Below are positions 6,999 to 30,995 of a stretch of 40,967 bases of DNA, piece by piece. Source of the stretch: a virus (Duplodnaviria > Caudoviricetes); IMG/VR virus record IMGVR_UViG_3300048578_000437, positions 1 to 40,967 of that record. One strand, written 5' to 3'. A program made the translations under genes and the position numbers. The notes under the pieces are model-generated. The model made no database searches. It saw nothing but the letters and a program-made list of their open reading frames with translations, and was not told where the DNA came from. How positions within the stretch are numbered: position 1 is the stretch's first letter; each line of letters begins with the position of its first letter.

Positions 6999-7335
6999 CC
7001 TCTCCTACGAAGAGACGTCGACGGTCTACGAGGTGACGCGCATCAAGAAGGCGCGGAAGCCACACCAGTGCGCGACCTGCCGCCGCACCATCCAGCCTGG
7101 CGAGAGCTACGAGCGGCACGCCTCGCTCTACGACGGGCACTGGAGCGACGCGAACGCCTGCTCCGAGTGCGCGGCCGACATCGCCGAGTTCGGCAAGGCG
7201 CACCGCTTCACGCCATTCCCCGATGGCGCCGAGCACTTCATCGAGGGCTGCATCGACGGCGACGACGAGGCCGACAAGCGCTGGAAGGCGATGCTCGAGC
7301 GCATCAGGGCCCGTCGGCTTTCGGGGGCTCGCTGA
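6991..7335 (+). CDS. Zn-finger phage protein
   Basis: KARKPHQCATC...IQPGESY...CSEC. Confidence 0.8.
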   Translation: MCDLSYEETSTVYEVTRIKKARKPHQCATCRRTIQPGESYERHASLYDGHWSDANACSECAADIAEFGKAHRFTPFPDGAEHFIEGCIDGDDEADKRWKAMLERIRARRLSGAR

Positions 7336-8035
7336 TTGCTTCGGTCGAGGGGGGGGAAAGGAACGTCAGCATGAGCTGGGCGTCCTCTTCCGAGAGCATC
7401 TCCTTCGCCTTCAGCTCCTCGATGCACGCCGCCAAGCCAGCGGCGTGGTCATCGTTTCCGTGGAGGTGCCTCTTCCAGACCGAGAGCTCGGCTTCGCTGG
7501 TGAACGGGTATTTCGTTTCGCTCAGTTCGCGCGCTCTGCCGATGATGAACTCAGCGAGGTCAGCGCTCATGCGCGATTCCGGTACCGTCCAGTCTCCGGC
7601 ACCCGTGCAATCGACGTAGAAGCCTCCTTGCTTAAGGTCGTCCAGTCTCGGCGGGACCGGGTTGTCGAAGTTGAAGATCCTCTCGAAGTCCGGGAGTTGA
7701 AGACGCCCTTGCGCGATGGCGGTCCTTGCTACGTCGGTCATCTCTGCGAAGACGACCTTCGCCGTGTGGCTTCGGAAGCGTTGCCAGTGCGCCTTCAGCG
7801 TCTCCGGCGTGGATGCAACCAGGATGTCCATGATGACCGCCGCCTTCCCTGCTTCCTCGAGGGCAAGGATGCCCAGAGACCCAGCGCGGGCGTGGTGCCC
7901 GGCCTTGAGCAACAGGTCACCCTCAGCGACCAACTGCCGCGCGTTCTTCATCGACGCGGCGATTCCCGACGCCGCTTGAGCCGGGGTGAGCTCACCGCAG
8001 TACCGCTCCGTTCTCGCCTTCTTCTTCTCTCTCAC
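7304..8035 (-). CDS. AbiV-family (HEPN-like) abortive infection protein
   Basis: NARQL..E..LL, ILALEEAGK, SHTAK and LKQGGFYVD motifs; antisense moron. Confidence 0.82.
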   Translation of the reverse strand: MREKKKARTERYCGELTPAQAASGIAASMKNARQLVAEGDLLLKAGHHARAGSLGILALEEAGKAAVIMDILVASTPETLKAHWQRFRSHTAKVVFAEMTDVARTAIAQGRLQLPDFERIFNFDNPVPPRLDDLKQGGFYVDCTGAGDWTVPESRMSADLAEFIIGRARELSETKYPFTSEAELSVWKRHLHGNDDHAAGLAACIEELKAKEMLSEEDAQLMLTFLSPPSTEAISEPPKADGP

Positions 8036-8388: not shown

Positions 8389-8513
8389 ACTCGTCGCTCT
8401 CGAGCAACGAGCCGAACTCGGTAGCGGGGAAGAAGCACCTCGTCGGTAACGCGCGTTGCCGGAGGGGCGCGCATGCCCGCGCTGTCCGCCGCCACTCGCC
8501 AAGTTGTTGCCGA

Positions 8514-9035
8514 CTAGCCGGGTGGAGCGACCTCAGGTGGTGCAGCACCGGGACCGGCGACCACGAGGTAGACGATGTACGCAACCAGAGCGAGCAAGCC
8601 GAAGCCGCCAACGCCGCCGACCCAAATCTTCACCGGAATGCCAAGGAACCTACCGGGCTCGCCGACGCTTATCGCCTTCAGGTTCGACTTCTTTGCCTTC
8701 AACTCGCCGTCGGTCACCTCGACGCCTTCGGCTGTCGTTCCTTCGAAACTCACTTTGGGCGGCTTCTTGCGAGCATCTTCACTCAAGGGCAATTCTCCAG
8801 AGGAATCCGGGGCAGGCTGGGCGAGAACGAGAAACAGATTCTGCGTGATCTGAGTATTCGTGAGCGTTGAGTCTTGGATGCTGACGAGTTCAGCGAGTGC
8901 GGTGCGGAATCGCCCCAGTTCGAAGCCGAGCGGCTGAAGGTTCGTCGGCTCGGCTGCTTGACGCTGAGCGCTTCCCTCAGGCTGCGCTAGTGCATCGACT
9001 GCGGCTTTTTTTTTTCGAAAACGACCTCGACCCAC
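8514..9035 (-). CDS. C-terminally membrane-anchored ORF, probably reached by -1 slippage from the upstream gene
   Basis: No in-frame ATG, no SD before its GTG; hydrophobic IWVGGVGGFGLLALVAYIVYLVVAG; overlaps the upstream ORF at an A10G run. Confidence 0.65.
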   Translation of the reverse strand: MGRGRFRKKKAAVDALAQPEGSAQRQAAEPTNLQPLGFELGRFRTALAELVSIQDSTLTNTQITQNLFLVLAQPAPDSSGELPLSEDARKKPPKVSFEGTTAEGVEVTDGELKAKKSNLKAISVGEPGRFLGIPVKIWVGGVGGFGLLALVAYIVYLVVAGPGAAPPEVAPPG

Positions 9036-9307
9036 GAGTCGTCGTCATAGGTCTCATCGCAGACTGGACACCGAGCCGGCAGCTCAGCAGGACTGCCGGC
9101 CCACTCATGATCCTGCGAACAGCGGATCTTCGTCTTCGAGCCGACGAAGCCCTGCTCTTCCAGAATGGCGAGCGCGGCCAACACGTCCTGGAGTGGCGTC
9201 TGGAACTCGTCAGCGAAGTAGTCAGGCCAAAGAACTCCCCAGCCGAGAGCTTCGGCACGGTCACGAATCCGCCCTGAAAGGGCGACGATTTCGCGTTGAG
9301 TCCGCAT
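8987..9307 (-). CDS. Winged-helix-like plus Zn-ribbon protein
   Basis: LAALAILEEQGFV, then CSQDH...CPVC; ends FEKKKPQSMH. Confidence 0.75.
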   Translation of the reverse strand: MRTQREIVALSGRIRDRAEALGWGVLWPDYFADEFQTPLQDVLAALAILEEQGFVGSKTKIRCSQDHEWAGSPAELPARCPVCDETYDDDSWVEVVFEKKKPQSMH

Positions 9308-9320
9308 ACCCGACCGGAGA

Positions 9321-10289
9321 CTAACGCTTGAGGGTGTCAAGAAGATGCCCCACGAGCCACGACATCGCCGACCGGCTCGTCTTGACCGGGAATTCTAGGT
9401 GGGTCGGCTTGTACTTGATCTTGAAGTTCACGCGACCGTGCTCCTCGAACCCGTCCGCATGCGTGTACGTGTAGTTGAAGGCTCTGGCGATACCGGGGGA
9501 CTGAGCGTGCTTCTTTACATCCTCGTCGGAAAAGTCGACCGGCTTGAGCCCTCCGCCATGAGAGATGCCCTCCATGATCACCTTCCCGTTCTTTCCCGAC
9601 GAATGATCAGTCGCGAACGCCGCGAGCGGCATCTTCAGCGCCTTCGTCATCTGATGGACGTGGGACTCCTTGAACTCGACCGCGGTGTAGGTTTCGGACT
9701 GGCCTCGTCCTGACTCCACAGGCGTCTCCCAGAGCCATTCGGAAAGCTGCCGAAGTGCCGCGCGGGAGTTCCCAGGAGACGAGTAGACACGCACAAGGCT
9801 GGTTCTTTTCGCCGGAACCTCGACCTCAACAGGAACGGTTTCCCAGCTGGTCTTCCGCTTCTCCTCCTGGCGAAAGGTTCGCTTGCGAAGAATGTGGATC
9901 GTGAATGCGACTCCGTCCTGAGTTGCGTGGACTCTCGCCACGCGTGCGGACAGAGAGTCAGGAACAGGGGTGGCCGCAATCGACTCGCCAATGCTCTTCG
10001 GCATCTTCGCGCCGTTTCTCTTCAGCGCGGCCGCGACTTGCGACTCGATGGCGCTCCACTGCCTTCCCTCGTGCAGGGCGTATTCCCAAATCCCGAGCGC
10101 GCGGCCGAACTCGAAGCTCCACTCGTGTTCGAGCCGGTACAGCTCATCGCCCAAGTGCTCGATAAGCTGCTCACGAGTCTCATTGGCCGCCGCATCGTCC
10201 TCGACGTGCCAGCCCTGAATGAGCTGCCCACGTTCCTTCGCCTCAACCCCTGCCTTCTTGAGCAGATGGTCCAAATGTAGATCGTTCAC
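9321..10289 (-). CDS. Hypothetical 322-aa protein, first gene of the accessory module
   Basis: GGAGGG SD before GTG; long ORF, visibly less GC-biased than the phage core. Confidence 0.8.
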   Translation of the reverse strand: MNDLHLDHLLKKAGVEAKERGQLIQGWHVEDDAAANETREQLIEHLGDELYRLEHEWSFEFGRALGIWEYALHEGRQWSAIESQVAAALKRNGAKMPKSIGESIAATPVPDSLSARVARVHATQDGVAFTIHILRKRTFRQEEKRKTSWETVPVEVEVPAKRTSLVRVYSSPGNSRAALRQLSEWLWETPVESGRGQSETYTAVEFKESHVHQMTKALKMPLAAFATDHSSGKNGKVIMEGISHGGGLKPVDFSDEDVKKHAQSPGIARAFNYTYTHADGFEEHGRVNFKIKYKPTHLEFPVKTSRSAMSWLVGHLLDTLKR

Positions 10290-10391
10290 GCCGCCCTCCA
10301 GAGGAGGCGGCAGAATGGATCACCGAAGGTGGGTAGTCCAGCTGGAGCGCAGGTTCGACATGTGACTGAATAGGTCAGCCATCCAACTGAA

Positions 10392-10423
10392 AGAGGCGCC
10401 GGCAATACGGCGCCGGCGCCTCT
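10392..10423 (-). terminator. Probable intrinsic terminator
   Basis: 12-bp stem AGAGGCGCCGGC/GCCGGCGCCTCT running into TTTCAGTT on the minus strand, just after the 10440 gene. Confidence 0.6.
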
Positions 10424-10439
10424 GGAATGCGAGTAGTGG

Positions 10440-10598
10440 TTACGCGGTCTTCTTCTTCCGATGCACCTTGCAAGGGAAGCACCACGCTTTGTGGCCGTAG
10501 GCTGCTGCGACCATCACCTTGCCGGTCCGCTTGTTGCGGTAAACCGGCGTGAAGCGACAGTACGGGCAGCCGATCAACTCTTCGTGCGAGGGGCCCAT
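10440..10598 (-). CDS. Small basic Zn-finger protein (52 aa)
   Basis: GAAGGAG SD before ATG 10598; CPYC...CFPC; the longer computed ORF is likely over-extended. Confidence 0.65.
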   Translation of the reverse strand: MGPSHEELIGCPYCRFTPVYRNKRTGKVMVAAAYGHKAWCFPCKVHRKKKTA

Positions 10599-10911
10599 GG
10601 GCGCTCCTTCGAACGAGGGGATCGACATTGGCGAGAGCGCGCGAAGGCGGAACGCCGGTGAGCCGAGCCCGCAGGCTGCGAGCTCGGCGACCAAGCCTAC
10701 GGAAGTCTGACGAAATGAACGAACTGAAGCCGCTGCATCGCTACCTCCCTGTCGGGCGCAGTTCCGTGCGCTTGCGGGGAGTTCGGGGTCGATATAGCTT
10801 CGACATCCCTGCCACGGGACGCGAGAACAGGATCTATTTCCGAACTCGAGTTGGCCGCCGCTGACCTCGAAGGTGCCTGGAAGCACCCCGCGGTTCAGCG
10901 GCGGCGTTTTT

Positions 10912-11388
10912 CTATCCTGCGACATCCTTCTTGAAGAGTTCGAACTGCCCGTCTCCCAGCCAACGGAACCGCGGACGCTTCACGTTACGGTCGCTTCCCG
11001 GAGAGCTGCGAAACACGGCCGTGTAGATCTTCGAGCCGCCGCGGGGTTCATCGGGGAGAAGCGCGGCTGCCGCTTCGGGAACCGAGTAGACGCCGTTGAC
11101 CGTCGGGTACCGCAAGCACCACGCGAGCACTCGTTCGGCCAGACTCGCATCCTCGGCATCTTCCAGAACGGTCTGAACCGGGCGATGCGCGGTGCGCTGA
11201 GCGACTGCTTTGGGCTTGGGCGCGACAGCCGTGTGGTTGGGGGCCTCTTCACGCCCTTCGCTCGCGTACAGCTCGTCGAGCAGGTCTTCCAACACGACCT
11301 TCCGGTCTCCTGGGCGGAGTAGGGCCAACTGCTCCGCGACCTGCTGACGGACCCGCCGGCGAGCTGCTGCATCAGGAAGAAGGCTCAT
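10912..11388 (-). CDS. Hypothetical protein with C-terminal winged-helix-like domain
   Basis: ATG 11388 just downstream of a promoter-like element; ends RFRWLGDGQFEL. Confidence 0.6.
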   Translation of the reverse strand: MSLLPDAAARRRVRQQVAEQLALLRPGDRKVVLEDLLDELYASEGREEAPNHTAVAPKPKAVAQRTAHRPVQTVLEDAEDASLAERVLAWCLRYPTVNGVYSVPEAAAALLPDEPRGGSKIYTAVFRSSPGSDRNVKRPRFRWLGDGQFELFKKDVAG

Positions 11389-11397
11389 TGGACGCGC

Positions 11398-11426
11398 AAC
11401 ATGACAACGCGGAATGCGCGGGTCAA
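11398..11426 (-). promoter_or_regulatory. sigma70-like promoter TTGACC-17-CATGTT
   Basis: Exact 17-bp spacing and extended TG, 9 nt upstream of ATG 11388. Confidence 0.5.
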
Positions 11427-11563
11427 GCATCAGGATGGCTTTTGTCGTCTTTGCCATGCAGGCACGGAACGCCCGTTCACTTGTCGGGGCTCAGAAGGCT
11501 TGACTCGCGCGCAGCGATGGGGATGGCGCATGGCCGCCCATCGTGAGGTCCCTGCGACAGTTC

Positions 11564-19692: not shown

Positions 19693-19899
19693 TCACCACC
19701 CCTTGCCGCGCTTCGACTTCGCCTCGCGCTTCGCCTTCTCGAGCGCCTTCTTTTCGTGGTCGGCCTTGATGCTGAGGTACGCGCGCCACTCGACGAGTTC
19801 CCCAGGGGGCAACGTCTCCTCGAGCTCGAAGACCGGGAGACCAAGGAGCTCCGCGATCTGGAAGAGCGAGACCCGAACGGGGTCCGCCTCTAGTTTTTT
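19693..19899 (-). CDS. Tail assembly chaperone frameshift extension (gpT part of gpGT)
   Basis: -1 frame after A AAA AAC reads LEADPVRVSLFQIAELLGLPVFELEETLPPGELVEWRAYL...GKGW* and stops 3 nt before the TMP start. Confidence 0.85.
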   Translation of the reverse strand, partial: KKLEADPVRVSLFQIAELLGLPVFELEETLPPGELVEWRAYLSIKADHEKKALEKAKREAKSKRGKGW

Positions 19900-20432
19900 T
19901 TCGCCTCCTCCTCCGCGCTCACGTTCATGAGCGGGTAGGCGAACTCGAAGATGTCGTCTGCGAAGCCGCCGACGAGCTGCTGACGGAGCGCCTGTTTGTC
20001 GGCGTCCGTGTAGACCTTGATGTTCGTGTCGGGCACGTAGGTGAGGGCGACGACGGTCTCGACCTGCAGCTCCGCCATGTCGATCTTCTCGCCATCGGCG
20101 CCGGTCACGCCGGCCGCCTTGAAGATGGAGGCGCGGAGCTTGATGCTCGGCTCGCGGACCTCGACCATCACCGGAGTGCCATCTGCCTTCAGCATCGGCG
20201 GGTGCCGGTACTTCTTCACTTCCTGCGTGAGCGGCTGTCCGTCGTCGCCGAGCACCGGGTTCTTCTCCGTGTCGAGCACGGGCTCACGCTTGGGCTGACC
20301 TTCCTCGTCGAGCACCACCTCGAGCGCGCGGGGCTTCGACGCGTCGCGGATGGGCACGAGCTTCTTCCGCATCTGGCGCGCGGGCGCACCGAGGGTCATC
20401 TGGCGCAGCAGGTCACGTTCGAGCGTCGACAT
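19890..20432 (-). CDS. Tail assembly chaperone (gpG-like)
   Basis: Position before TMP; ends EEEAKKN* over the slippery site. Confidence 0.85.
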   Translation of the reverse strand: MSTLERDLLRQMTLGAPARQMRKKLVPIRDASKPRALEVVLDEEGQPKREPVLDTEKNPVLGDDGQPLTQEVKKYRHPPMLKADGTPVMVEVREPSIKLRASIFKAAGVTGADGEKIDMAELQVETVVALTYVPDTNIKVYTDADKQALRQQLVGGFADDIFEFAYPLMNVSAEEEAKKN

Positions 20433-21109
20433 CAGGGCTCCCAGGAGTAGCCGGCGAGGCCGGTGGCGCGAGCCGCGCCGGTGAAGTTCACGGTGTTGCT
20501 GACGAGCTCGTCGACGGAGCCGCCGGCCTCGGTGCTCTCGATGAGCCCCCAGGCGCGGAAGCGCTTGCCGCCCGTGGCGACCTCGAGGAGCAACGGCGTG
20601 CCGTTGTCGAGGTAGCTCTTCAAGACGAGGGCGCCCGCGCCGGGGTCGTGGTCAACGGTGAGCAGCTCGTTCAACGTGAGGCTGCCGGTGACGTCTTTCA
20701 GCCCGAGCTTCTTCGTGCGGACGCCCGCGGCGTTGTTGATGGTCGTGTCGTCGAGGACCGTGCGCGAGCACGTGATGGACCAGTCGGTGACGCCGAGCAG
20801 GTCGACCACCGGGATGTAGCTCGCGCTCACGCGCACGAGGGCCGCGGCGCCCTGGTCGGCGAGGAACGTGATGATGCCGAAGAGGTAGTCGACGACGTAG
20901 GAGGAGGCGGGCGCGACGGCGTAGCCGCCGCCGCCGGCGCCGTCCGCATCGACCTCGACGACGACGGGCACGGCCGGGTCGAGCAGGCGGCGCGCGTCGG
21001 TGTTGAGCTGGTAGACGGTGTTCGCGGTGAGCTTCGTCGTCGGCTCGTTCGTGAAGGCCGTCGACGTGCCCGGACCACGAATGACGCTCGTGTGGTTGGC
21101 GGTCGACAT
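20432..21109 (-). CDS. Second tail-tube-like protein with an N-terminal extra beta domain
   Basis: C-terminal half VLDDTT...RTKKLGLKDVTGSL parallels the upstream tube protein. Confidence 0.75.
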   Translation of the reverse strand: MSTANHTSVIRGPGTSTAFTNEPTTKLTANTVYQLNTDARRLLDPAVPVVVEVDADGAGGGGYAVAPASSYVVDYLFGIITFLADQGAAALVRVSASYIPVVDLLGVTDWSITCSRTVLDDTTINNAAGVRTKKLGLKDVTGSLTLNELLTVDHDPGAGALVLKSYLDNGTPLLLEVATGGKRFRAWGLIESTEAGGSVDELVSNTVNFTGAARATGLAGYSWEP

Positions 21110-21118
21110 GGAGGCGCC

Positions 21119-21526
21119 TTACGGACGAGCGATGGCCGCGCCAGCCTGGGTGATGTTGAACGTCGAGCTGACCAGGTCGCCGACCGCGCCGCCGTTCTCG
21201 ATGCTCTCGACGAGCACCGGGTAGGTGGCGCCCGTGGTGCCGTCCTGGAGGTCGGTCACGTAGACGAGCGTGCCGTTCAAGTGCGCGTTGCGGAGGATGG
21301 TCTGAATCGCGTCCGCCGGCTCCCAGTCGCCGCTGATGGAGCCGGAGCCGTCCTTCAGGCCCAGCATCTTCGTGCGCTGGTCACCGTCCTTGAAGTCGGT
21401 GGTGTCGAGGACGTCGCGCGTCGTGGTGAAGCTGAACTCCTTCGCGCCGTCGAGCTCGTCACTGCCGCTCGGCGCCGCGTTCGTCGCCTTGACGTAGACC
21501 TTCCGGAGGTGAGCTGCGGTGGACAT
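21119..21526 (-). CDS. Major tail tube protein
   Basis: AAGGAG SD; EFSFTTTRDVLDTTDF...RTKMLGLKDGSGSISGDW. Confidence 0.85.
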   Translation of the reverse strand: MSTAAHLRKVYVKATNAAPSGSDELDGAKEFSFTTTRDVLDTTDFKDGDQRTKMLGLKDGSGSISGDWEPADAIQTILRNAHLNGTLVYVTDLQDGTTGATYPVLVESIENGGAVGDLVSSTFNITQAGAAIARP

Positions 21527-21555
21527 GGGCGGGCTCCTTGCGAGAGAGCGCGACA

Positions 21556-21581
21556 CTGCCGCGAGGCACGCACACGATTCT
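21556..21581 (-). promoter_or_regulatory. Late-promoter-like motif, copy 2
   Basis: AGAATCGTGTGCGTGCCTCGCGGCAG upstream of the tail tube gene. Confidence 0.6.
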
Positions 21582-28101: not shown

Positions 28102-29577
28102 TCAGCTGAGCGACTTCGCCCACGGTGGGTCGGCTCGCTCGGGCTCGACGTCGATCACGAGGTCCGCGTCCTCTTCGTCGTCGAGCTTGCTCGGCTTGTC
28201 GCCAGGCTCGAGCTGCGCTGGCGCCTGGCCCGGGAGCGCGTCCGGGTACTTCCCAGAGAGTTCAGGCTTGGGCTCGAAGCCGGCCTCCGCGCGCCACTCG
28301 TTCAGCTCGAAGGCGCGCGGCTGCGCCTTCATCACCTCGAGGCGATGCGACTTGTCCTCGGGCTCGTTCATCTCGGCCTCGAGCACAGCAGCGTCGCCGC
28401 CGGGGTACTTCGTCAGCAGCTGCGAGGCGATCTCCGCGCGAAGGAACTGCACACGCGGGTGCTCGACACCGACGACGAACATGTAGAACGCGGAGTCGAT
28501 CGTCGCTCGGTTGCTGTCCTCGATGATGCCGATCACCTCGGGCGGCACGCCGAAGACCTGCACGCAGGTGTCGCGCTCCATGCGGCGGAGCTCGACGAGC
28601 TGCTGCTCGCGGAACGCCGTGTCGAGCTTGACCGCGTTGATCTTCCCCGAGGCGAAGTGAGCGCGATGGGCGTTGTGGACTCCGCGGTGCGCCGCCTCCC
28701 ACTTCGCGCGCGCCTCCTCGACTCCCTTGCCCCCGGCTTCCTCGAGGCCGACCATGATCGACGGTGTTGCGGAGTTGAAGAACCAAGTCTTGATGTACTT
28801 CGCTGCGAACTCGTCGGTCTCGAGCTCGTCGCCCAGGCTCTCGGCGATGCCGCTGCCTCGACCGTACGGGGACGCGGGATCGACGTCGCGGAACCACAGC
28901 ACGGCCTTCGGATCGACCTTCATCTGCAGGCCGCCGTAGGTCACGAGGAAGTAGGGCGAGGTGTTGTTCGGGACCTGCGTCACCCAATGAGGAGGCACCG
29001 GGTAGACGCTGCTGGGCTGGCCCTCTGCGTCGAAGGCGACCAGCCAGAAGGCCTCGCCTTTGATGTCGAGCCAGATCTGCGTGACCTTCAGCGCGACCTC
29101 GCCCGACATGAACTCGTTCGGCTTCGCCAGGAGCTTGAGGAGCGGGTGGTCGACGACCTCGCGAAGAACGCCCGCGCGCTGCAGGCTGCGCCGGTGCGCC
29201 GCGCGCACCTTCCAGCTTCCGCTCTGGAGACGGTGGTCGCGCACCATCCGGTCCTGGCCCCAGCGCCACACGGGCGGCAGTCCGTCTCGCGACTCGCGGT
29301 GGAGGTCGATGGTCCTCGAGCGCGCGGGCAGTTCGGCGCGCGCGTAGATGCGCCACTGCGTCCCGGCGACCGCGCGCGCGATGCGGCTCGTGACCGCTCG
29401 CAACCAGGGCGAGAGGTTGTACATCTGGATCAGCTCGAGCGTGCCGCGCTTCGGTGGCCCACGCCCGCCGGTGCCCGAGGCGAGGAGCCCGCCTTCGAAG
29501 TTCTTCGCCGTGAGCGGGCCGGGGGCCGGCGCCGCTGCTCGGCTGAAGTAGCCCTTCACCTTGTCGAGCAAGCCCAT
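28102..29577 (-). CDS. Portal protein (HK97 family)
   Basis: DHPLLKLLAKPNEFMS, GEAFW, WFFNSATPS, FGVPPEVIG, NEWRAEAGFEP; start MGLLDK. Confidence 0.93.
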   Translation of the reverse strand: MGLLDKVKGYFSRAAAPAPGPLTAKNFEGGLLASGTGGRGPPKRGTLELIQMYNLSPWLRAVTSRIARAVAGTQWRIYARAELPARSRTIDLHRESRDGLPPVWRWGQDRMVRDHRLQSGSWKVRAAHRRSLQRAGVLREVVDHPLLKLLAKPNEFMSGEVALKVTQIWLDIKGEAFWLVAFDAEGQPSSVYPVPPHWVTQVPNNTSPYFLVTYGGLQMKVDPKAVLWFRDVDPASPYGRGSGIAESLGDELETDEFAAKYIKTWFFNSATPSIMVGLEEAGGKGVEEARAKWEAAHRGVHNAHRAHFASGKINAVKLDTAFREQQLVELRRMERDTCVQVFGVPPEVIGIIEDSNRATIDSAFYMFVVGVEHPRVQFLRAEIASQLLTKYPGGDAAVLEAEMNEPEDKSHRLEVMKAQPRAFELNEWRAEAGFEPKPELSGKYPDALPGQAPAQLEPGDKPSKLDDEEDADLVIDVEPERADPPWAKSLS

Positions 29578-29600
29578 GGCCGAGGAGTAGCCCGGTGCCG

Positions 29601-30995
29601 TCACACGAAGGCGAAGGCCGGGGTGACCATGAGCTCGTGCAGGCCCCAGCACATGGCGTCGGTCCGGTCGTCGCGCCGACCGTTCACCCCGGTGAAGGTC
29701 TTCATCTGAGCCTCGAGCTTCGGGTGCTCTCCCACGAGGTGCACCTTTCCCTGCTCGTAGAGCGCGGCGATCGGCTCCGCGCGCTTCGTCTTCCCGCGCA
29801 TCGCGCGCACGGTCTTCACGGGGAGCGAGTCGTCGACGGTGCGGAGCGTGAACTCGACCATCTCGCCGCCGACGTTCACCTCGGCCACGACGGCGTCGGC
29901 CTGGAACTCGTGGAAGGTCGCGGCCACGCGCCGCGCCCACTGGTCGGGCGTGCCCTTCATCGAGCGGTCGGCAAGCACGTAGCCGTGATCGTTCGCATCG
30001 AGGCCGACCACGATGATCCCCGTCTCGTCGTCGCCGCCTGAGGTCTGGGTCGGGTCGACCGCAACCACCACGCGCACCAGCTCGGGAGCGCGCGCGACGC
30101 GGGCGGCAAACACCTTGACCATGTCGAAGATGCCGGCTGACGCCTCGAGGATCTCGCCGCCGAGCTCCTGTTTGCCCAGTCGGCTGTTGCCGTAGAGCCG
30201 GGTGACGGTATCGATGAAGTTGGCCGCGAGGTTCGCCTGGTTCTCGTAGGTGTTGCCGCGGGTGACGAATGTCCCGGGGTCCTTCATCAGCTTGATGAGG
30301 AACTCGTGCGGCTTCGGCGTGCCAGTCACGACGGAGCGCGGCTTCTTTCCGAGTCGGAGCCCGAGCTGGAACTGTGCCCAGACCTCGTCGGGATTGACCC
30401 AGCTCATCGGCTCGTCGCCCCAGCCGAAGTCGTGCTGCGGTCCGCGGAGGCGCTCGGGCTCTTCGGCCGAGAAGAGCGTCGCGCGCGCGACCTCGTGCCC
30501 CCCGCGCTTCCAGGTGACGCGCCGCTTGCTCGGCTCGTAGTGCGCCTTGAACCAGGGCGGGCAGACGGCCAGCAGTCCGCTGTCGCCCTCGACCATCGTC
30601 TCTCGGGCGTCCGCCGCGGTGGGCGCGATCAACGCGATGCGGTGCGCGTTCCCGGACTCGACCTGGTCCCGCACGGTCTCGGCCCCGGTGCGCGTCTTTC
30701 CGAAGCCACGGCCGGCGAGGATCAGCCACGTGTTCCAGTCGCCAGGAGGCAGGAGCTGCGAGTCGCGCGCCCAGAGCCCAGCCCAGTCGTAGAGGAAGGC
30801 GAGGACCGCGGAGTCAGGAAGGGTCGCTATCAGCTGCTGCAGCTCGCTCGGCGTGAGCAGCTTCAGCAGGTGGTGCGGACGCAGGTGCTGGCTCAGCGCC
30901 AGCCCCTGTTCCAACGCTCGATCCTCCAGCGCCGCCCGGACGTCCGATGCCAGCCAAGAGCTTGCCGAGCTTGTCGTTGAGGAGCTTTCGAGCAT
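29601..30995 (-). CDS. terL: Terminase large subunit (start uncertain)
   Basis: AGRGFGKTRTGAE Walker A, GWGDE Walker B, VVAVDP and DDRTDA nuclease motifs. Confidence 0.95.
   Translation of the reverse strand: MLESSSTTSSASSWLASDVRAALEDRALEQGLALSQHLRPHHLLKLLTPSELQQLIATLPDSAVLAFLYDWAGLWARDSQLLPPGDWNTWLILAGRGFGKTRTGAETVRDQVESGNAHRIALIAPTAADARETMVEGDSGLLAVCPPWFKAHYEPSKRRVTWKRGGHEVARATLFSAEEPERLRGPQHDFGWGDEPMSWVNPDEVWAQFQLGLRLGKKPRSVVTGTPKPHEFLIKLMKDPGTFVTRGNTYENQANLAANFIDTVTRLYGNSRLGKQELGGEILEASAGIFDMVKVFAARVARAPELVRVVVAVDPTQTSGGDDETGIIVVGLDANDHGYVLADRSMKGTPDQWARRVAATFHEFQADAVVAEVNVGGEMVEFTLRTVDDSLPVKTVRAMRGKTKRAEPIAALYEQGKVHLVGEHPKLEAQMKTFTGVNGRRDDRTDAMCWGLHELMVTPAFAFV

Follow-up and report, generated by a model that had tools for sequence, protein, structure and literature searches.

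A coding run of nine or ten adenines is conserved at the end of a small gene, ORF-B, in a mobile accessory cassette found in a provirus and in three bacterial genomes, and a shifted reading frame lies open behind it. The run and the open shifted frames make it probable that one locus yields two products, a short protein and a programmed fusion, whether the shift occurs on the ribosome or on RNA polymerase. Of these two routes we tentatively prefer the latter, in which slippage of RNA polymerase at the A9-A10 run makes the fusion. The sequence-only reading had proposed a 106-aa and a roughly 264-aa form from one locus, a proposal that the conservation of the run supports and that possible separate starts of the downstream ORF qualify.

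The A-run and the frame behind it in the window

The window, by which we mean the whole stretch of 40,967 bases analysed, is a metagenome-derived IMG/VR provirus record with a CheckV completeness of 56% and a G+C content of 68%. Family searches placed portal, protease, HK97-type capsid, tail, tape measure and endolysin genes on its minus strand. The G+C content drops beyond the lysis region, to 0.60-0.61 over 8501-10500, and this part carries three unnamed ORFs, ORF-A, ORF-B and ORF-C, followed by an AbiV-family HEPN gene (Table 1). The three ORFs gave no meaningful match in Pfam, PHROGs, NCBIfam or PADLOC. The AbiV-family gene shares the strand of the cassette, runs opposite to the flanking early genes and was not seen beside the other cassettes described below.

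Table 1. Features of the cassette and its surroundings in the window.
Feature	Position	Strand	Description
ORF-A	9321..10289	-	322 aa, unnamed conserved partner; stop 13 nt before the ORF-B ATG
ORF-B	8987..9307	-	Predicted winged helix bearing a four-Cys Zn ribbon in its wing; 106 aa, the short product of the zero frame
SD-like GAGGT	9024..9028	-	Ends 8 nt before the run; possible -1 stimulator
A10 run (G-AA AAA AAA AA-G)	9006..9015	-	Predicted slippage site; T10 on the plus strand
ORF-C	8514..9008	-	-1 frame past the run: linker, beta-rich stretch, C-terminal TM helix; 163 codons
Predicted hairpin	8960..8996	-	8 nt past the heptamer; stability not above chance
Possible internal start of the last 90 codons of ORF-C	8784..8798	-	GGAG, 8 nt, TTG
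Predicted TM helix of ORF-C	8556..8612	-	Kyte-Doolittle 19-residue mean 2.37
AbiV-family HEPN gene	7304..8035	-	PF18728 E 2e-34, TIGR04498 E 2e-29; context only

The last codons of ORF-B, on the minus strand, are TTC GAA AAA AAA AAG CCG CAG TCG ATG CAC TAG, with the stop five codons past the run. The A10 is the longest homopolymer of the window, followed by a T8 at 19894 and a G8 at 7349, and base composition predicts only about 3e-4 runs of at least ten As in the 3.1-kb island. Translation in the -1 frame would continue beyond the lysines to a stop at 8514 and give a fusion of 264 aa irrespective of which codon shifts. The run and the base after it, the stop, the 163-codon frame, the C-terminal hydrophobic helix and the length of the fusion are all as the sequence-only reading had described them, judged from the sequence, the frame translation and the Kyte-Doolittle profile. 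Codon statistics weakly back the -1 ORF as coding: GC1/2/3 is 0.69/0.48/0.66, and the codon score is +0.02 in its own frame versus -0.57 and -0.84 in the other two.

Other elements around the run bear on how ORF-C might be reached. ORF-C indeed lacks an ATG, as had been claimed, but the accompanying statement that it lacks a Shine-Dalgarno sequence goes too far, since a GGAG that pairs with the anti-SD at -6.4 kcal/mol precedes a TTG in frame at 8786. The GAGGT upstream of the run pairs at -7.1 kcal/mol, a value reached by 7% of background windows. The AGCGC/GCGCT stem suggested earlier is present in the predicted fold, but it is no more stable than shuffles (z +0.49, -1.26 and -0.95 over three spans, the last being the 41-nt span).

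Several other regions of the window drew attention. Two unnamed ORFs of 161 and 181 aa at 10440-11457, slightly low in G+C content and without a match in the same family libraries, lie between the lysis genes and ORF-A, from which a terminator-like hairpin at 10414-10395 divides them. An 875-aa ORF at 28102-30729 has a portal domain over residues ~384-850 only; its N-terminal part matched none of the families shown, no large terminase is named elsewhere in the window, and the ORF may be a terminase-portal fusion. Consecutive ORFs at 20432-21109 and 21119-21556 both match major tail protein families and would be a split or duplicated tail tube gene. At 19894-19901 on the minus strand, the end of the ORF at 20432..19890 reads GCG AAA AAA AAC TAG and has a 69-codon -1 frame; lying between the tail tube and tape measure genes, it is likely the tail assembly chaperone frameshift.

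Conservation of the run among loci and proteins

Four loci were compared at the DNA level: the window; L002, a 2.2-kb Myxococcaceae MAG contig (genome G001) from a GTDB scan; L004 (genome G170); and L005 (genome G297). A search of a 401-genome sample of the phylum of L002 gave five matches, of which three were kept. The other two, L006 and L007 (E 7e-5 and 4e-4), were dropped; one was a short match at the end of an unrelated 489-aa ORF, the other a frame interrupted by stops. The same loci were returned by a whole-order search (3 of 363 genomes) and by further searches of 291 genomes and of 401 genomes with an ORF-A profile, and all three come from one order. Viral-contig scans and two metagenome scans yielded no homologue, and no near-identical record was found. 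Plasmid tblastn returned nothing for five queries or for the L004 tail, one chance match in a further search, and two weak 50-aa matches to the L002 tail.

In L002, L004 and L005, ORF-B ends in CAA AAA AAA A.. (A9), in the phase seen in the window and a few codons before the stop. The run and its next base read A10G, A9G, A9C and A9C across the four loci, so that A_AAA_AAA stands in phase in all of them and A_AAA_AAG in the window alone. No other A or T run of at least eight occurs in the 20-kb regions around L004 and L005 or in the L002 contig. For the encoded residues and the codon use around each locus, xAA AAA AAA would arise by chance with a product of 6e-9 over the four loci, or about 7e-6 without the window, which was picked for its run. 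Because the four ORF-B proteins are only 26-37% identical, the shared A-codons are unlikely to reflect simple inheritance. The sequence-only reading had named homologues uniformly in frame or lacking the run as the outcome that would speak against it; A9 at all three other loci is the opposite outcome, and the conserved run that it had suggested looking for is present in 4/4 loci and compatible with 11 of 12 short homologous proteins.

Behind the run, the -1 frame is open for 167 codons in the window, 239 in L004 and 153 in L005, whereas in L002 it meets a stop after 8 codons and it is the +1 frame that stays open, for 151 codons and with two TM peaks. ORF-C of L005 has a C-terminal TM peak and that of L004 has none. 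The four tails do not align as one family, an unrelated ORF standing at each locus. A downstream -1 ORF, possibly with swapped effector domains, had been suggested as a thing to look for; the open shifted frame and the exchange of domains were borne out, but L002 departs in its frame. Over the first 30 residues, the L005 (-1) and L002 (+1) peptides resemble each other (shuffle p 0.005, the sole pair of six, with three lengths tried), which fits L002 being an A10 layout minus one A. Since the shifted-frame peptides are otherwise non-homologous, nothing points to selection acting on the linker sequence. Past the TM ORF of L002, two further unnamed ORFs lie on the same strand (L002:970-1845), the first with a lipoprotein-like signal. 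The distal part of the L004 ORF-C (L004:1869-2588) consists of an amphipathic helical domain and then a short beta-rich C-terminus; it had no library match and is reminiscent of bacterial Bell-domain/amyloid-motif proteins.

The run also lies at a structural boundary. An AlphaFold2 model of ORF-B from an 8-sequence alignment (pLDDT 85) ends its last strand, residues 92-99, at the run. The model superposes on winged-helix domains at Z 7-9 (rmsd ~2-3 A over 60-75 residues), the best match having Z 9.2, rmsd 2.9 A and 67 aligned residues, with many ties at Z 7-8; in these alignments the Zn ribbon is skipped as a wing insertion. In this model-based comparison the matches give the fold of ORF-B, not its function. 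Foldseek gave no match at E<=0.001, and PDB sequence searches returned nothing significant.

At the protein level, phmmer against 1.84 billion representatives gave 68 hits, namely the query, eight single-stretch relatives (34-46% identity) and 59 multi-stretch proteins. The last were dropped as zinc-finger repeat proteins, two having been inspected, and were reused as controls. With two members from a profile search and two from genome searches, the family comprises 13 proteins, whose tree carries no starred branch and has the members seen at the DNA level on both sides of its midpoint. A word search for longer homologues, a weak search, found none among 298 candidates. All but one of the 13 are 106-140 aa long with KK or KKK near the end, and in 11 of these 12 the stop follows the lysines by 5-8 residues. 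Tails able to encode A9 or more were found in 11 of the 12 short proteins (7 of the 8 whose DNA was not seen), the exception, P0024, allowing A7 at most; among controls, which are mostly unrelated repeat proteins and give a rough background only, the figures were 3/61 tails, 21/1266 windows and 1/36 myxobacterial gene tails. A CAA- or GAA-codable residue, Q or E, precedes the lysines in 10 of 12 family proteins (6 of the 8 with DNA unseen) versus 6% of 177 control K-runs, and where the lysines are a bare KK, the next codon can begin with A in 5 of 6 versus 34% of controls. The remaining member, P0056 (236 aa), reads on in frame into a C-terminal hydrophobic (TM) helix and has no such A-run.

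These distributions bear on two ways in which the run might be something other than a programmed site. One is that an assembly error, or a one-off mutation, produced the A10 of what is truly a single fused ORF. Homopolymers are error-prone, the record is metagenome-derived and P0056 is fused in frame, all in keeping with such an error; against it, an out-of-frame run recurs in three independent genomes and assemblies from JGI, Logan, ENA and NCBI contribute the short proteins with K-tails, which makes the explanation very improbable. The other, raised by the sequence-only reading, is phase variation, in which the length of the run would shift during DNA replication and toggle a fusion gene in subpopulations. 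The occurrence of both A10 and A9, together with the likeness of the L002 +1 peptide to the L005 -1 peptide as if L002 had lost one A, would suit this model. None of the 12 run-bearing members is in the in-frame state, however (p 0.008 if the three frames were equally likely), the sole fused member lacks the run, and the closely placed stop in 11 of 12 is what a maintained short product would have; we therefore rank phase variation low.

Routes from the run to a long product

According to our preferred reading, RNA polymerase would slip on A9-A10 and add one A, such that part of the transcripts encode a long form with a locus-specific tail, in the window a predicted membrane anchor, while the remaining transcripts encode the short soluble form. 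The run would also act as an evolutionary joint: any ORF that came to lie downstream in the matching frame would be appended in a set dose, with the short form retained. This route is ranked above -1 ribosomal frameshifting because it is the length of the run that is conserved, and not A_AAA_AAG or a hairpin. A heptamer is complete with a single A ahead of the lysine codons, yet the family keeps two there and one more behind; the Q/E bias and the A that begins the fourth codon therefore suggest selection for a total length of at least 9. That length approximately matches the RNA:DNA hybrid of 8-10 bp, and slippage by the E. coli enzyme is undetectable below eight As (both from the available part of PMC6260861). 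Slippage in Thermus thermophilus dnaX uses a run of 9 As, and in E. coli the shift reached 40% on an A9 cassette and 63% on an A11 cassette (PMC3711429, in the part available). The placement of the run exactly at the end of the predicted ORF-B domain, and its absence from the fixed in-frame TM fusion P0056, lend further support to slippage.

Programmed -1 ribosomal frameshifting on A_AAA_AAA or A_AAA_AAG, from an unaltered mRNA and helped by an SD-like element and a hairpin, would yield the identical product; it may contribute, and both routes may act together. Its heptamer is in phase at 4/4 loci, with the long ORF in the -1 frame at three, and both heptamers are proven -1 motifs (PMC3711429 and PMC4066793, each in part). 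Folding predicts hairpins close to the run for the window and L005, and further off for L004 (z -2.5). Yet the folds 3' of the run have z of +0.31, +0.09, -2.51 and -0.82 at the four loci and share no sequence. Stimulatory SD-like elements of -1 frameshifting stand some 9-14 nt upstream. Such elements end 8 nt before the run in the window (GAGGT) and L004 (AGGTGA), each at a level of 7% in the background, and are missing from L002 and L005. The heptamer does not call for the Q/E bias before the lysines, and L002 is not readable by a -1 shift. The emphasis that the sequence-only reading had placed on A_AAA_AAG and a downstream structure is therefore not sustained by the comparison, the motif occurring at one of four loci and no 3' structure being shared, and frameshifting on the ribosome seems to us unlikely as the principal route, though the foremost of the rivals to polymerase slippage.

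For polymerase slippage, L002 is the locus that asks for more. Because its TM ORF is in the +1 frame, and because the poly(A) runs studied in the available part of PMC6260861 gave no deletion slippage with the E. coli enzyme, this locus would need the addition of two As or else represent a decayed allele.

A further explanation requires no fusion, ORF-C being a separate small gene with its own start and the run serving to encode a tail rich in lysine, to pause the ribosome or the polymerase, or to act as a polar brake on ORF-C. Possible starts exist in all four ORF-Cs: TTG at codon 77 in the window, GTG at 87 in L004, ATG at 37 in L002, and ATG at 41, 48 and 62 in L005, the last set being the strongest (-10 kcal/mol). 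The linker peptides are mostly unrelated and the frame of L002 differs, as separate genes would allow. A basic tail, on the other hand, has no need of AAA codons, which account for one of the 25 lysine codons outside the run in ORF-A and ORF-B of the window, and no terminator-like site using the A-run, antisense included, was found in the window. Separate genes would also leave unexplained the open gaps of 110-260 nt in otherwise tight cassettes. The chance of an open linker up to the first plausible start is 0.42 for L002, 0.017 for L004 and 0.33 for L005, a product of ~2e-3 that is carried mainly by L004, the L005 linker being open in +1 too. With P0056, moreover, the ORF-B domain is carried fused to a TM tail, and we consider independent expression of ORF-C improbable as a full account, if less so than phase variation.

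The mobile cassette, its possible role and known systems

Homologues (20-27% identity) of ORF-A, a conserved partner that the sequence-only reading had not named, lie directly upstream of ORF-B in L004 and L005, giving adjacency in three of the four loci with the window included; in G001 the homologue is on a separate 1.9-kb contig without overlap with L002, and the assembly does not place it next to ORF-B. The three ORFs of G170 make up an insert of 0.53-0.59 G+C within DNA of 0.70 G+C, just before phage genes that, as read from their translations, appear to encode terminase, portal and capsid. In G297, they fill a 2.2-kb low-G+C insert between two diverged ~350-bp copies of the 3' end of a host gene (L015:8374-8730 and 11052-11407), which we take to be an enoyl-CoA hydratase relative; the insert has no integrase-sized ORF, and no phage gene was seen in 20 kb around it. 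The cassettes thus sit in low-GC inserts, two of them in prophages (window and G170), and the content of the inserts in regions L014 and L015, namely ORF-A, ORF-B and ORF-C only, together with their flanks, indicates that the mobile unit is A-B-run-C.

From this accessory mobile setting, the AbiV neighbour and look-alikes in the ESM Atlas, we consider it somewhat probable that the cassette serves anti-phage defence or a similar conflict. Look-alikes of ORF-B fall into some 28 unnamed clusters (0.93 for the best, lengths of 104-111 aa), and structural look-alikes over ~95 residues occur within Cap12-TIR, SIR2 and TIR cluster proteins (TM 0.56, 0.62 and 0.57). ORF-A and the short ORF-B might form a nucleic-acid-sensing core, which the minority long form would tether to the membrane or equip with an effector. 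Single-sequence modelling of ORF-A was unusable (pLDDT 43), an ORF-A/ORF-B complex prediction gave no answer (score 0.02), and a word search for ORF-A returned only the window's own protein among 4376 candidates. More speculatively, and with doubt outweighing confidence, we propose an undescribed family of anti-phage cassettes in which the slippage site is a built-in socket for effector exchange: most copies of the sensor pair would be tail-less, a minority set by slippage would bear an interchangeable tail, and the fusion would have become fixed elsewhere, with a TM tail in P0056 and possibly with TIR or SIR2.

The recoding mechanism is of a known kind. Our literature search, which had subscription papers and most supplements outside its range, turned up no paper, by title or start of abstract, on a conserved slip site with exchanged tails. 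To our knowledge, the part behind the shift in known bacterial recoding is a fixed partner. In the present cassettes, the conserved feature is the shift site, and the tail changes between loci. Gene callers and defence predictors see only a lysine-ended protein of ~105-140 aa, and protein databases consequently lack the long forms. A defensive cassette would be an instance in which recoding serves to dose and exchange immune effectors; should the socket proposal be true, recoding would set the dose of a toxic effector and speed effector turnover in bacterial immunity.

Among defence systems, GAPS4 invites comparison, being likewise a small cassette on mobile DNA with a gene for 320-380 aa. ORF-A has Atlas feature neighbours at 0.94-0.95, and in one neighbouring cluster 23% of members are assigned to GAPS4b_N (PF26110), a weak recognition. 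In contrast, hhalign of a 4-sequence ORF-A profile with one E. coli GapS4b gave a probability of 0.1%, GapS4b not ranking in the top 8 of 94 E. coli control ORFs, and the ORF-B profile with E. coli GapS4a likewise gave 0.1%. GAPS4 requires a PD-(D/E)xK nuclease gene, GAPS4a, in tandem with or fused to GAPS4b, and acts as a 2:2 complex in DNA-damage-triggered genome degradation (PMC13748975, available part). Identity of the cassette with GAPS4 is ruled out by the absence of a GAPS4a nuclease gene from the inserts. The words frameshift, slippage, zinc, winged and transmembrane do not occur in the main text of PMC13748975, nor 'myxococc' in the available portion of its supplement.

In the lambda G/GT type of tail assembly chaperone, a frameshift yields a short and a long form. 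The A10 resembles such a site in being a predicted A-rich -1 site in a siphovirus genome that would give a short and a long form. It differs in location: it lies ~8 kb beyond the end of the tape measure gene, not between the major tail and tape measure genes, where the likely chaperone site is found, and it stands in a low-GC accessory insert, the run also occurring at L015, where no phage gene was seen in 20 kb. Bacterial recoding is known chiefly from IS elements, tail chaperones, dnaX and a small number of enzyme clusters (PMC3711429 and PMC4066793, in the parts available), and a tail assembly chaperone frameshift cluster is among those named in PMC3711429. With the -1 frameshifting of E. 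coli dnaX and the IS3 family, which uses A_AAA_AAG, a 5' SD and a 3' stem-loop (PMC4066793, in part), the cassette shares the in-phase heptamer and, in two of four loci, an SD-like element; unlike those systems, it has the AAG ending in the window only, no conserved 3' structure, and a run conserved beyond the heptamer. A further likeness is to T. thermophilus dnaX slippage and the A-run recoding clusters for magnesium chelatase, DUF111 and DUF772 (PMC3711429, available part), which likewise have a conserved coding A9-A10, a short and a long product per locus, and homologues with a fixed fusion. In those clusters, as described there, the second part is a conserved partner, whereas the cassette has an unrelated tail at each locus and travels as a small mobile insert.
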